From a virus (taxonomy: Duplodnaviria > Heunggongvirae > Uroviricota > Caudoviricetes): a DNA stretch of 21,054 bases. This document shows, one piece after another, positions 1-3,000 of the stretch. Each line of letters starts with the position of its first letter. Position 1 is the first letter of the stretch. Location: the IMG/VR virus record IMGVR_UViG_2521172734_000008, positions 1 to 21,054 of that record, one strand, 5' to 3'. Position numbers: made by a program.

Positions 1-3000
1 TTATGATGATGCCGGTGCATTTATCTCCAGCACCAGACTTTCTATCTCAACGCCATACGTTGCATTTTTGGTAATATCCGTCAGCGTCAGTGCATTTAGT
101 CCCACTGCCAGACTGTCTTTTATGGCCTGGAATGCCGGGCCAGCCACTCCATTCAGTTTCGGAGTAACCGTGGCACTGCCGGCGGTGAACACCAGTTCCA
201 GCGTTTGCCAGTCATTACTGTAATTCCCGAACTCGCCCAACTTTGTGTTTCCTGCTTTCTTGTGATGCATCAGATTCAGTTTGCCGTCTGTGGTCTGGGT
301 GAAGAACGACATCAGGAACGGGTTACCAGTCCCGGTCATCGCCACGACGTCAGGTAACGCTACATCGGTATACAGATAAATTCCCAGGCCGAACTGGTTG
401 TTGGTCAGTGCGCCTGACAGTCGAAACTTACAGCTCAGTCTGCCACCCCGTGTCAGCAGGGAGACTGCGTCATCCACCGGGCGCGTCAGGGACCAGGCTT
501 TATTGCTCTGCTTGGTGATCTTAAATACACCCTCTGACAACTGAATTCCGCCATTCTTAATGCTCCAGCCCTGCGCAGCAGCGTCTCCGGCTGTCGGCAA
601 CAGGGAGATTGTGCGTACGGATGCATCTTCAGACGGCCCCGATGGCGTGTCGCCGCCGGGCGAGGGTTTGATTTCCGGTGCCTTACCACTGATGAAGGCT
701 GAGGTGCGCCCGGCTGCGTTCAGAATAGCGGTTGCCATACGATCCGGAATAATGCTCCTGCGCGCCCATGAACTGAAATGTGTCGGGCGGTTTGATGATA
801 CCTGGTTTCCATTCGTTCTCGATGCCGCACCGTAATATCCTGATGCCGGAATATCCGGATCTTCTGCCGGTGCGTTAGTGGCGGTATTGACGCCGTTACC
901 GTCTGTCATGAAGGGCACAAAATAAACGCCCTCACTCTCCCTGTTTTTATACCCGCCGTACACGGTGTCGTACTGGGTAGCGTATGTATTTTTCCAGTAA
1001 TACGTCGTGTCACCACAAATCCACGGCACATTTACAGCACTGCCACCATGACACTGCGCGTTAAACACAGTGAGGTCAGCACGAAACTGCTTCAGCATGG
1101 CTGTAAACAGCGCAGGTTGCTGTGCGTAGGTGGCGGCGTTCATGTCAAACTCTCCCTGCATCCAGCACACCGCCAGCAACACATTTTTCGGGTTCTTCTG
1201 TAATGCAGCTTTAGTGCGCGCAATCAGGTCCTGATATAACGGTTTACCCACACCCCAGCGTGCCGAATCCTGGCTGGCCCCCGCGTCCGCACTGAATGTC
1301 CCCTCCGCGCCCTTGGTGAATGCCGAACCACCACGACAGCATGGTACCAGCAGGATCCCCGCGTTATTCGGGATATACGGGAGCAGTTTTTTGGCAATAT
1401 GTAAGCCCTGGCCGACACAGCCGTACTGCCCTTTGCTCAGGTCTGCCTTCGGATGATTCAGCGTACTCATATCCTGCACATCATGCAGACAGTGGTCAGC
1501 CGGGATGATGTCGTTATACGTACAACTCTCTCCACCCGGAGTTACCGTGCTGCGGCGCGCCAGCTGTTTAATGCGCGGATCCGGAGCATCGTAAGAATCC
1601 GGTAACGGAAGCCCTTCACCGTAGGCCATGCCGTTGGACTGTCCGGCAAGCACAACCACGTAGAACCAGTCCGGCTCAGATGAAGGGCCGACCTGTGGAT
1701 CTCCTTCAATAGCCACCGCCTGCATCAGTGTGTACGGCGTAATGGCAACCGGTCCGCCATATGGCTGCCAGCCCTCTTTCAGTTTGTGTGTCAGCTTTTC
1801 CGCAAGGTCTGACGGCGACGCCGCCCTGACAACATCATAGTGTTTAAATGCCATGAATCCTCCCGGCCGGGATAATATTGTGAGTAAAATGAGGAGCGGG
1901 CTGAAGTCCGGAAGTTACAGGACAATGGCAGAAGAGAGACAATAGCCCGCAATACGAAAAAGGCCGCGCTATTGCGCAGAGTGATTACTGTCGGATATTA
2001 TTCGCCAGCTGAAATATTACTTCACGTTTTGTTGTTTATTCCTTGCCGCCCGCGTCTCCCTGCGCGGGATTTTTTTGTCCATAAGAAAGCCCCTCCGGAG
2101 AGGGGCTGGAGAGTGGCGCTATGTGCCATTGCATGGTGCCGGGTGCCTCCCGGTGAATTCAGTACCAGCACCTGAATCCGCGATTATCCCATATACCTAC
2201 TCGCTGATTGCCCCTCCGCACAGGGGGATTCACCATGCCAGTTTCTTTTAACAAACTCCCCGCAAAACAGACAACTGTCAACCGTCTGAATTGTGAGACA
2301 TTTAAAAAAAAGGACCCGCAAAAGCGAGCCAGGGAAAATAAGTGTGGCGCGTTGTACTGGATTCGAACCAGTGACCGATTGCTTAGAAGGCAATTGCTCT
2401 GTCCGGCTGAGCTAACAACGCAGGGTACAGATAATGGACCGCCATCGAGGACTCGAACCCCGCGCAACCAGCTTCGAAGGCTGGCGCTCTATCCTGATGA
2501 GCTAATGGCGGTATGTGATGGTGGCCCTTGCTGGATTTGAACCAGCGACCTGGCGATTATGAGTCGCTCTCACCACTGAGCTAAAGGGCCGGGAGCCGCA
2601 TAATAACGACGCGTAATTAATTCTTCAATATCATCCGTTCTGGCTGACTAAATCCTGTACTTCCCGAACCGTCTGCTCAAAACATTCAGTCTCCAGCTCA
2701 ACGCCAATTGCACGACGCCCGAGCGCCAGTGCTGCTTTGACGCTACGGACATAAAAAAGCCAGCCACTGGGGGAGGCTGGCGAAACTCGTAGAGCAAAAG
2801 TGTTGTTACACTAACTTCGTCACAGGGTTATCCTGCAATACTCAAAATACACAATATTTACAAAACTAATAGTATACAAGGCGATCTTTAAGATTTTGTT
2901 ATAAATTATTGCCTTTCTCCTCTTTCCATGAGCTTTCTGGGTAGCCACAGAATTCCGGGTACAGAAAAACCCGCTCAGCGGCGGGTTTAAGCTGTGTGAC

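Follow-up and report, generated by a model that had tools for sequence, protein, structure and literature searches.

A four-base deletion allele of the phage tRNA gene ileZ in lambdoid prophages of Escherichia coli is probably a young pseudo-tRNA

We found that a tRNA gene with the anticodon CAU in a stretch of viral DNA (Caudoviricetes; IMG/VR record IMGVR_UViG_2521172734_000008, positions 1 to 21,054) is ileZ, the first gene of the ileZ-argN-argO operon of lambdoid and Shiga toxin (Stx) prophages, and that this copy is 4 nucleotides (nt) shorter than the canonical gene. We refer to the whole stretch of 21,054 nt as the window. It is very probable that the gene is a young, non-decoding ileZ pseudo-tRNA, a rare allele made by slippage deletion that would be nearly neutral in a prophage without stx. 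The allele probably adds a further case to a known kind, the young tRNA pseudogene, and the ileZ gene itself was already known. The gene and its altered parts lie as follows.

2519..2590, minus strand: ileZ delta-4 allele, a 72-nt CAU tRNA of the tRNA-Ile2 type with CCA encoded (ARAGORN, Rfam, alignment and the Prokaryotic Genome Annotation Pipeline, PGAP).
2566..2569, minus strand: the remaining single GAGC unit, RNA nt 22-25, which is the deletion junction; canonical ileZ reads GAGCGAGC here (alignment and sequence).
2559..2561, minus strand: anticodon CAU, RNA nt 30-32, within the loop CUCAUAA (ARAGORN and sequence).

The identity of the gene is clear from its neighborhood. ARAGORN called three adjacent tRNA genes on the minus strand (cat, 2590-2519; tcg, 2511-2435; tct, 2421-2345), and the Rfam tRNA model matched all three. 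Among 5,426 complete E. coli genomes, 3,060 had a match to the 341-bp tRNA region, as did 289 phage records, for the most part from Stx2-converting phages. The names ileZ, argN and argO are those given to the three genes in the annotations of 933W, VT2-Sakai and others. As a tRNA-Ile2 that depends on lysidine, ileZ serves the rare isoleucine codon AUA. The window has the arrangement typical of this operon, in which a promoter of its own, three tRNAs and a terminator have Q and methylase sequence upstream and, as the downstream neighbor, either stx or, as here, nanS-p. The phage gene is said to have been first reported as 'ileX' by Schmidt et al. in 1997 and named ileZ by Plunkett et al. in 1999.

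The RNA, read directly from the DNA, is GGCCCUU-UA-GCUC-AGUGGUGA-GAGC-GA-CUCAUAA-UCGCC-AGGUC-GCUGG-UUCAAAU-CCAGC-AAGGGCC-ACCA. Canonical ileZ is 76 nt long, and alignment with the copies of VT2-Sakai and PhiR49_2 showed that it has GAGC-GAGC-GA at the junction of the D-stem and the anticodon stem. There, the two GAGC units reach from the 3' strand of the D-stem across position 26 into the anticodon stem, whose first bases they include. Only one GAGC is present in the window copy and in that of strain 15A, which is identical to it; both have 72 nt and are otherwise unchanged. Because it is identical to the canonical gene except for the loss of one GAGC, we judge from its sequence that the window gene is a mutant allele of ileZ and not a different gene.

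The repeat is a property of the phage gene. Host ileX, whose sequence was verified by a 100% match to an annotated tRNA-Ile, reads GAGCAGGCGA at this place and has no tandem repeat; the (GAGC)2 repeat amounts to two substitutions relative to ileX. The slippage hotspot thus belongs to the phage gene and not to its host counterpart. Replication slippage classically deletes one unit of a tandem repeat, and we infer that it most likely removed one GAGC unit from ileZ, probably more than once.

The short allele is real but rare. We found an exact match to the 72-nt sequence in 8 of 2,960 E. coli records (2,949 genomes with 7,205 ileZ places). The other 2,952 records matched it only with a 4-nt gap, at no more than 94.7% identity, which is the identity that an exact 76-nt copy gives against the 72-nt query. 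At least one exact canonical 76-nt copy was present in 2,720 of 3,067 records searched with an 80-nt query. None of 284 phage records had the short allele; all had the 76-nt form. A gapped-pattern search of IMG/VR gave the GAGC insert in 120 of 120 among the matches listed, and the short junction was found in 6 viral contigs from IMG/VR and 2 metagenome contigs. No GTDB representative genome was found to have the short junction, so what we say here is confined to E. coli and its phages. A sequencing error is not the cause of the deletion, since 8 complete genomes have the identical 72-nt allele, as have 6 contigs of IMG/VR and 2 metagenome contigs. The short form has thus been sequenced independently many times, yet it is rare among copies of the highly conserved gene from which it derives, with a frequency of ~0.1-0.3%, and it dominates none of the haplotypes on which it was seen.

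Carriers of the short allele had four combinations of flanking sequence.

Haplotype i: porin and methylase remnant upstream (the window, 15A, AF39, B1-56 and contigs L134, L135 and L138).
Haplotype ii: intact methylase upstream, downstream as in i (SCU-105, TUM13773, SW070912 and contigs L133 and L139).
Haplotype iii: unrelated helix-turn-helix gene upstream, in a degraded prophage ridden with insertion sequences (2013C-4830 and 2012C-4227).
Haplotype iv: upstream as in ii, different downstream, argN not called by ARAGORN (contigs L136, L137 and L140).

We compared these haplotypes with their closest full-length relatives. Haplotype iii, represented by 2013C-4830, has at least 28 full-length twins that are identical over 380 nt except for the additional 4 nt (384 nt, 99.0%). 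The window haplotype also has many full-length twins that differ only by insertions and deletions (303 vs 300 nt, 98.4%). For haplotype iv, the candidate twin AVS0528 (L141) was only 95.9% identical over 1.3 kb, so no independent origin is established for that haplotype. Full-length twins differing only by the 4 nt on the two haplotypes tested suggest either recurrent slippage or spread by recombination. The simplest reading of these alignments would be that one GAGC was lost at the hotspot at least twice independently.

A single ancient deletion could also have spread by recombination among mosaic lambdoid phages, with the function of the tRNA lost or impaired. The 72-nt sequence is identical in all carriers, and three of the four flank combinations have either an upstream or a downstream block in common. 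Mosaicism is high in lambdoid phages, and crossovers in conserved tRNA genes are plausible. However, the haplotype of 2013C-4830 differs on both sides: its upstream sequence could not be aligned, and its argN, which begins 8 nt past ileZ, has several differences from the window copy. Spread of one deletion to this haplotype would need two crossovers within ~100 bp, and the haplotype is identical to many full-length genomes save for the 4 nt. We consider a single origin unlikely.

The deletion has clear structural consequences. The short allele scored 58.2 bits against the Rfam tRNA model RF00005 (E=1.8e-10), above the 29-bit gathering threshold, compared with 72.5 bits for full-length ileZ. 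Its acceptor stem (GGCCCUU/AAGGGCC, 7 bp) and T stem (GCUGG/CCAGC, 5 bp) are entirely Watson-Crick, and the T loop has 7 nt. In contrast, the D-stem and the T-stem are separated by 19 nt rather than the 23 nt of the full-length gene, and ARAGORN placed the anticodon at position 30 instead of 34-35. In the alignment to RF00005, a gap of 4 columns falls within the 5' side of the anticodon stem, and three of the five stem pairs are non-canonical. A D-stem of 4 bp, nucleotide 26 and an anticodon stem of 5 bp do not fit together in the short RNA. The features that mark a tRNA-Ile2 are all there, namely CAU in a CUCAUAA loop, the pairs C4:G69 and C5:G68, and A73, the discriminator among the identity elements of tRNA-Ile. 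An anticodon stem of normal length, the part contacted by the CTD1 domain of the lysidine synthetase TilS and required to bridge the distance between the anticodon and the acceptor contacts, is not.

We asked which cloverleaf-like forms the 72-nt RNA could adopt. The unconstrained minimum free energy (MFE) structure is an unreliable judge, since the cloverleaf of the full-length tRNA is not its MFE structure either, and we used constrained enumeration; as folding energies of unmodified tRNAs, the values that follow are qualitative only. The MFE structure (-27.5 kcal/mol) put CAU in an 11-nt loop and had no variable region. With the canonical D-stem GCUC/GAGC kept, the 7-nt CUCAUAA loop was closed by only 2 bp (-23.7 kcal/mol). 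A 4-bp GCGA/UCGC anticodon stem cost half of the D-stem (-22.6 kcal/mol). The order GA-GA-GC in the sequence allows the D-stem a shift of 2 nt (C11-G22, U12-A21 and C13-G20, with the 6-nt loop AGUGGU); the anticodon stem then has 4 bp, and A23 is the spacer. This was the best cloverleaf-like form (-25.6 kcal/mol, compared with -29.0 for the canonical fold of the full-length RNA). Its stack has 3+1+4 = 8 layers, whereas that of a normal tRNA has 4+1+5 = 10, and it is without A21.

These results bear on an earlier description of the gene made from the sequence alone (the sequence-only reading). It had described a CAU tRNA at 2519-2590 with perfect acceptor and T arms and 19 nt from D-stem to T-stem, all of which ARAGORN, Rfam and the sequence confirmed, although its reading had to be corrected for the strand, which is minus. 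It had estimated that about 3 nt were missing 5' of the anticodon stem; bases are indeed missing, and the alignment puts the loss at exactly 4, one GAGC unit. Its claim that the anticodon stem must share nucleotides with the D-stem holds in the canonical D register, but the 2-nt shift of the D-stem avoids the sharing. Its comparison with tRNA-Ile2 was right in spirit, ileX being identical to full-length ileZ at 68 of 76 positions, but the proper reference is phage ileZ. A mis-parsed ordinary tRNA and a length shared by all homologues would each have spoken against its description; the covariance-model alignment needed a 4-nt deletion and broken pairs, and the homologues are 4 nt longer.

How such an allele could lose function and persist can be outlined as follows. 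The promoter, the terminator and the neighboring tRNAs are intact, so a short ileZ transcript would still be made, and because the acceptor and T arms are intact its ends would probably still be processed. The RNA is unable to form the normal stack of D-stem, position 26 and anticodon stem. E. coli TilS recognizes its substrate at the anticodon and the anticodon stem and, ~60 Angstrom from the active site, at the pairs 4:69 and 5:68; substitutions in the anticodon stem impair it (PMC11947777). In the short allele C4:G69, C5:G68 and A73 are retained, but the geometry of the arm is lost; thus, lysidinylation by TilS and charging by isoleucyl-tRNA synthetase would be poor or absent, and the RNA would be used little or not at all by the ribosome.

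The loss would be tolerated where the host supplies tRNA-Ile2 and a prophage without stx makes no raised demand for AUA decoding. Genes of the ileX type were present in 5,424 of 5,426 genomes, and most carriers of the short allele also have further copies of ileZ. In stx2AB, stx being the usual partner of ileZ, AUA has a frequency of 36.6 per 1000 codons and accounts for 68% of the Ile codons. The late genes of the window prophage have 4.7 AUA per 1000 codons, and its early genes have 4.9. By tblastn, none of 17 carrier sequences, 15 of which reach nanS-p downstream, had a homologue of the Stx A subunit. Relaxed selection in carriers that lack stx fits these observations.

The pseudo-tRNA alternative, one of those offered by the sequence-only reading, is thus the one that the comparisons favor: more than 99.7% of the E. 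coli ileZ records and 284 of 284 phage records have the 76-nt form, and the short allele has the form of a simple slippage product and is rare on every haplotype where it was seen. Several points weigh against it nonetheless. The predicted loss of function is read wholly from the geometry of the RNA, and the shifted cloverleaf is fairly stable and within 2 kcal/mol of the MFE, so that some activity could remain. In all 8 genomes PGAP annotated the gene as tRNA-Ile and did not mark it as a pseudogene. With their genes for terminase, portal, capsid and tail, several carriers have the look of intact, perhaps active prophages, so phages can evidently propagate with the allele; this agrees with neutrality but would agree with retained function too. 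An association of the short allele with the lack of stx was not significant and is not claimed here, as fewer than one short allele would be expected among the 284 phage records. The reciprocal product of slippage, (GAGC)3, had no exact match in the E. coli collection with an 80-nt query. Finally, recurrent loss is not strictly separable from a single origin followed by crossovers in the ~100 bp of tRNA sequence.

It is possible that the short ileZ RNA is a structurally unusual yet functional tRNA that adopts the shifted, compact cloverleaf, is lysidinylated and charged with Ile, and reads AUA, perhaps less efficiently. The absence of a pseudogene flag and the apparently intact carriers would agree with this, as would the energy of the shifted form, which competes with those of the MFE structure and the full-length canonical fold. 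That form keeps GG in its 6-nt D-loop and the 7-nt CUCAUAA loop, and the deletion leaves C4:G69, C5:G68, A73 and the entire anticodon loop as they were. In addition, bacterial tRNAs with a 4-bp anticodon stem are common and can function (PMC13092985). However, those surveyed have an arm of the normal 17 nt, an unpinned pair 27:43 and the anticodon at 33-37 (PMC13092985). Full-length ileZ, with A27.C43, fits this class (VT2-Sakai, L002 1551-1626, and all canonical copies). The short allele may show a 4-bp stem but does not belong to it: 4 nt are gone, its anticodon is at position 30, its stack is 2 layers short, and the stem is had only by shifting or sacrificing the D-stem. Its 6-nt D-loop lacks A21, no compensatory changes accompany the deletion, and at ~0.1-0.3% the allele is never dominant on a haplotype. 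We regard retained decoding as improbable. If it were true, a bacterial system would be using a tRNA whose D/anticodon helix is short of the normal one by two layers.

The sequence-only reading had also raised a role in countering tRNA-cleaving defenses. In this case the RNA, folded as the shifted cloverleaf, would be a working tRNA or a decoy whose short arm resists or sponges an anticodon-arm nuclease, for example one of the OLD family, and the recurrence of the allele would reflect selection. There are precedents for phage tRNAs acting in this way: the tRNA-Lys of T5 neutralizes PARIS (PMC11464382), phage tRNAs evade retron effectors (PMC11555353), and a phage tRNA-Thr resists P2 Old partly through an anticodon stem that is one pair shorter (PMC12445682). 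The presence of the allele on several haplotypes could be taken in the same way, and the short ileZ, like the T5 tRNA-Lys and the tRNA-Thr, is phage-borne and has an anticodon arm unlike that of the host tRNA. In contrast to it, those tRNAs are conserved and functional, their rescue has been demonstrated (PMC11464382, PMC12445682), and they are cases of one unpinned pair rather than deletion alleles; the window allele is not conserved and has probably lost decoding. Text searches of the Old paper found neither 'Ile' nor 'IleX', and the ileX/ileZ stem, with GCG at nt 28-30 and CGC at nt 40-42, is without the paired CNG motif described there (PMC12445682). The allele is very rare, with 0 of 284 phage records, and a tandem-repeat hotspot predicts recurrence without selection. 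We know of no nuclease that targets tRNA-Ile2. Altogether, the gene is conserved, but this rare derivative of it is not a conserved design, and we found no support for a counter-defense role, which we consider highly improbable both for a decoy or resistant RNA in general and for one selected by a nuclease such as Old.

The closest known systems compare with the window allele as follows. The ileZ of 933W and VT2-Sakai is the same gene in the same operon order, with the promoter and the terminator in the same positions and the same place between Q/methylase and the late genes, and it is identical to the window copy at 72 of 72 positions outside the deletion. It differs in being 76 nt long, with GAGC-GAGC, and in lying upstream of stx2; the window copy has 72 nt, one GAGC and no stx, and its operon is followed directly by an STnc100-like element and nanS-p. 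Host ileX and ileY share with ileZ the anticodon CAU, the CUCAUAA loop, C4:G69, C5:G68, A73 and the same D and T arms. At the junction, ileX has GAGC-A-GGCGA, a G27.U43 pair and no repeat, whereas ileZ has GAGC-G-AGCGA, A27.C43 unpaired and the slippage-prone repeat. The window allele has 4 nt fewer than both ileX and full-length ileZ.

Other genes of this operon have small lesions too. The ileZ of phage vB_EcoS-611R1 (ON470586.1; L004 1496-1564) has a different 4-nt deletion (CGAC) and several substitutions. The last bases of the anticodon stem and the first of the loop are lost by that deletion; the gene scores 32.6 bits and is annotated as a pseudogene, tRNA-Pseudo-TAT. In haplotype iv, the position of argN is heavily diverged and has a 3-nt insertion (L136 ~2117-2200, L137 ~1503-1590 and L140 ~3414-3500); in these contigs ileZ is the short allele and argO has a change in the acceptor stem. 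Many E. coli genomes have a two-tRNA annotation similar to that of haplotype iv. In the 611R1 ileZ, the haplotype iv argN and the window allele alike, the acceptor and T arms are still recognizable. The window allele differs from the 611R1 gene in having a single lesion and in passing every annotation filter.

The remaining parts of the operon and its surroundings in the window are as follows.

2600..2628, minus strand: sigma-70-like promoter of the tRNA operon (TTGAAG, 17-nt spacer, TATTAT), ending 10 nt upstream of ileZ.
2435..2511, minus strand: argN, tRNA-Arg(UCG), 77 nt, apparently intact (ARAGORN; Rfam 56.0 bits).
2345..2421, minus strand: argO, tRNA-Arg(UCU), 77 nt, apparently intact (ARAGORN; Rfam 70.1 bits).
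2313..2330, minus strand: intrinsic-terminator-like hairpin and T-run, 15 nt past argO, the end of the tRNA operon.
2631..2744, minus strand: 3' remnant of a DNA methyltransferase, a phage gene (pseudogene; mapped from the PGAP annotation of the O111:H21 15A prophage).
1..1854, minus strand: NanS-p-type SASA carbohydrate esterase, the first late gene past the tRNA operon (open reading frame list, 15A annotation, tblastn).
2077-2267, minus strand: STnc100 RNA element (Rfam, 139 bits), between the terminator of the tRNA operon and nanS-p.
3416-4498, plus strand: OmpC-like porin gene, between quuD and the tRNA operon, in the opposite orientation.

The promoter-like site has 9 of 12 matches and is the sole match in 1.35 kb, which is not significant alone; its position is that of the 'putative tRNA promoter' annotated in VT2-Sakai. 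A terminator is annotated in VT2-Sakai at the place equivalent to the hairpin past argO. In the window this hairpin (~2312-2330, minus strand) is one base longer than in strain 15A and in all other aligned haplotypes; the extra base is in the 3' half of its stem, GCGGGTCC vs GCGGGCC. The argN of the window scored 56.0 bits, compared with 54.8 for the VT2-Sakai copy.

In the late direction, the order of genes is quuD (the Q antiterminator), the opposed OmpC-like porin gene, the methyltransferase remnant and the tRNA operon, and then the STnc100-like RNA element, the NanS-p esterase, and the holin and lysis genes. There is no stx gene between the tRNA operon and nanS-p of the window prophage. 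In VT2-Sakai the STnc100 element is downstream of stxB (L002 3208-3339), so the stx genes appear to have been inserted between the tRNA operon and this element. The methyltransferase gene is intact (1050 bp) in SCU-105 and TUM13773, and the remnant in the window is 114 bp; insertion of the porin gene apparently truncated it.

A lambdoid prophage in strain 15A of E. coli O111:H21 matches the window at 99.98% identity. At ~15861-16240 (plus strand) the window has ~380 bp of different sequence where the 15A prophage (L012 4672-5730) has IS903B; the source of the window is thus a close relative of 15A and not that strain itself. Elsewhere in the window, a C4 antisense RNA (10634-10721, minus strand; 82 bits) adjoins an isrK Hfq-binding RNA (10746-10822, minus strand; 62 bits), and the pair is within or upstream of a gene for a Rha-family regulator (10025-10879). 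This looks like a c4/ant immunity module of the P1/P7 type in a lambdoid prophage. Full-text literature searches on ileZ/argN/argO, and on ileZ with Shiga toxin, returned no relevant paper, and a broader one on the tRNA genes of Stx phages brought only passing mentions of such genes.

The scientific weight of the finding is modest. It exposes a blind spot of annotation: ARAGORN (tRNA-Met), the Rfam model and RefSeq/PGAP (a 72-nt tRNA-Ile) all report an ordinary tRNA, and only the position of the anticodon (30) or the length (72 nt) betrays a broken gene. At 58.2 bits the short allele outscores the intact argN (54-56 bits), which explains the unflagged tRNA-Ile of PGAP and the tRNA-Met of ARAGORN. 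The allele is a clean natural case of a tRNA gene with a built-in slippage hotspot, at which a loss allele would recur and yet stay rare. For the biology of Stx phages, the results are consistent with, although not proof of, the notion that ileZ is dispensable in prophages without the AUA-rich stx genes.

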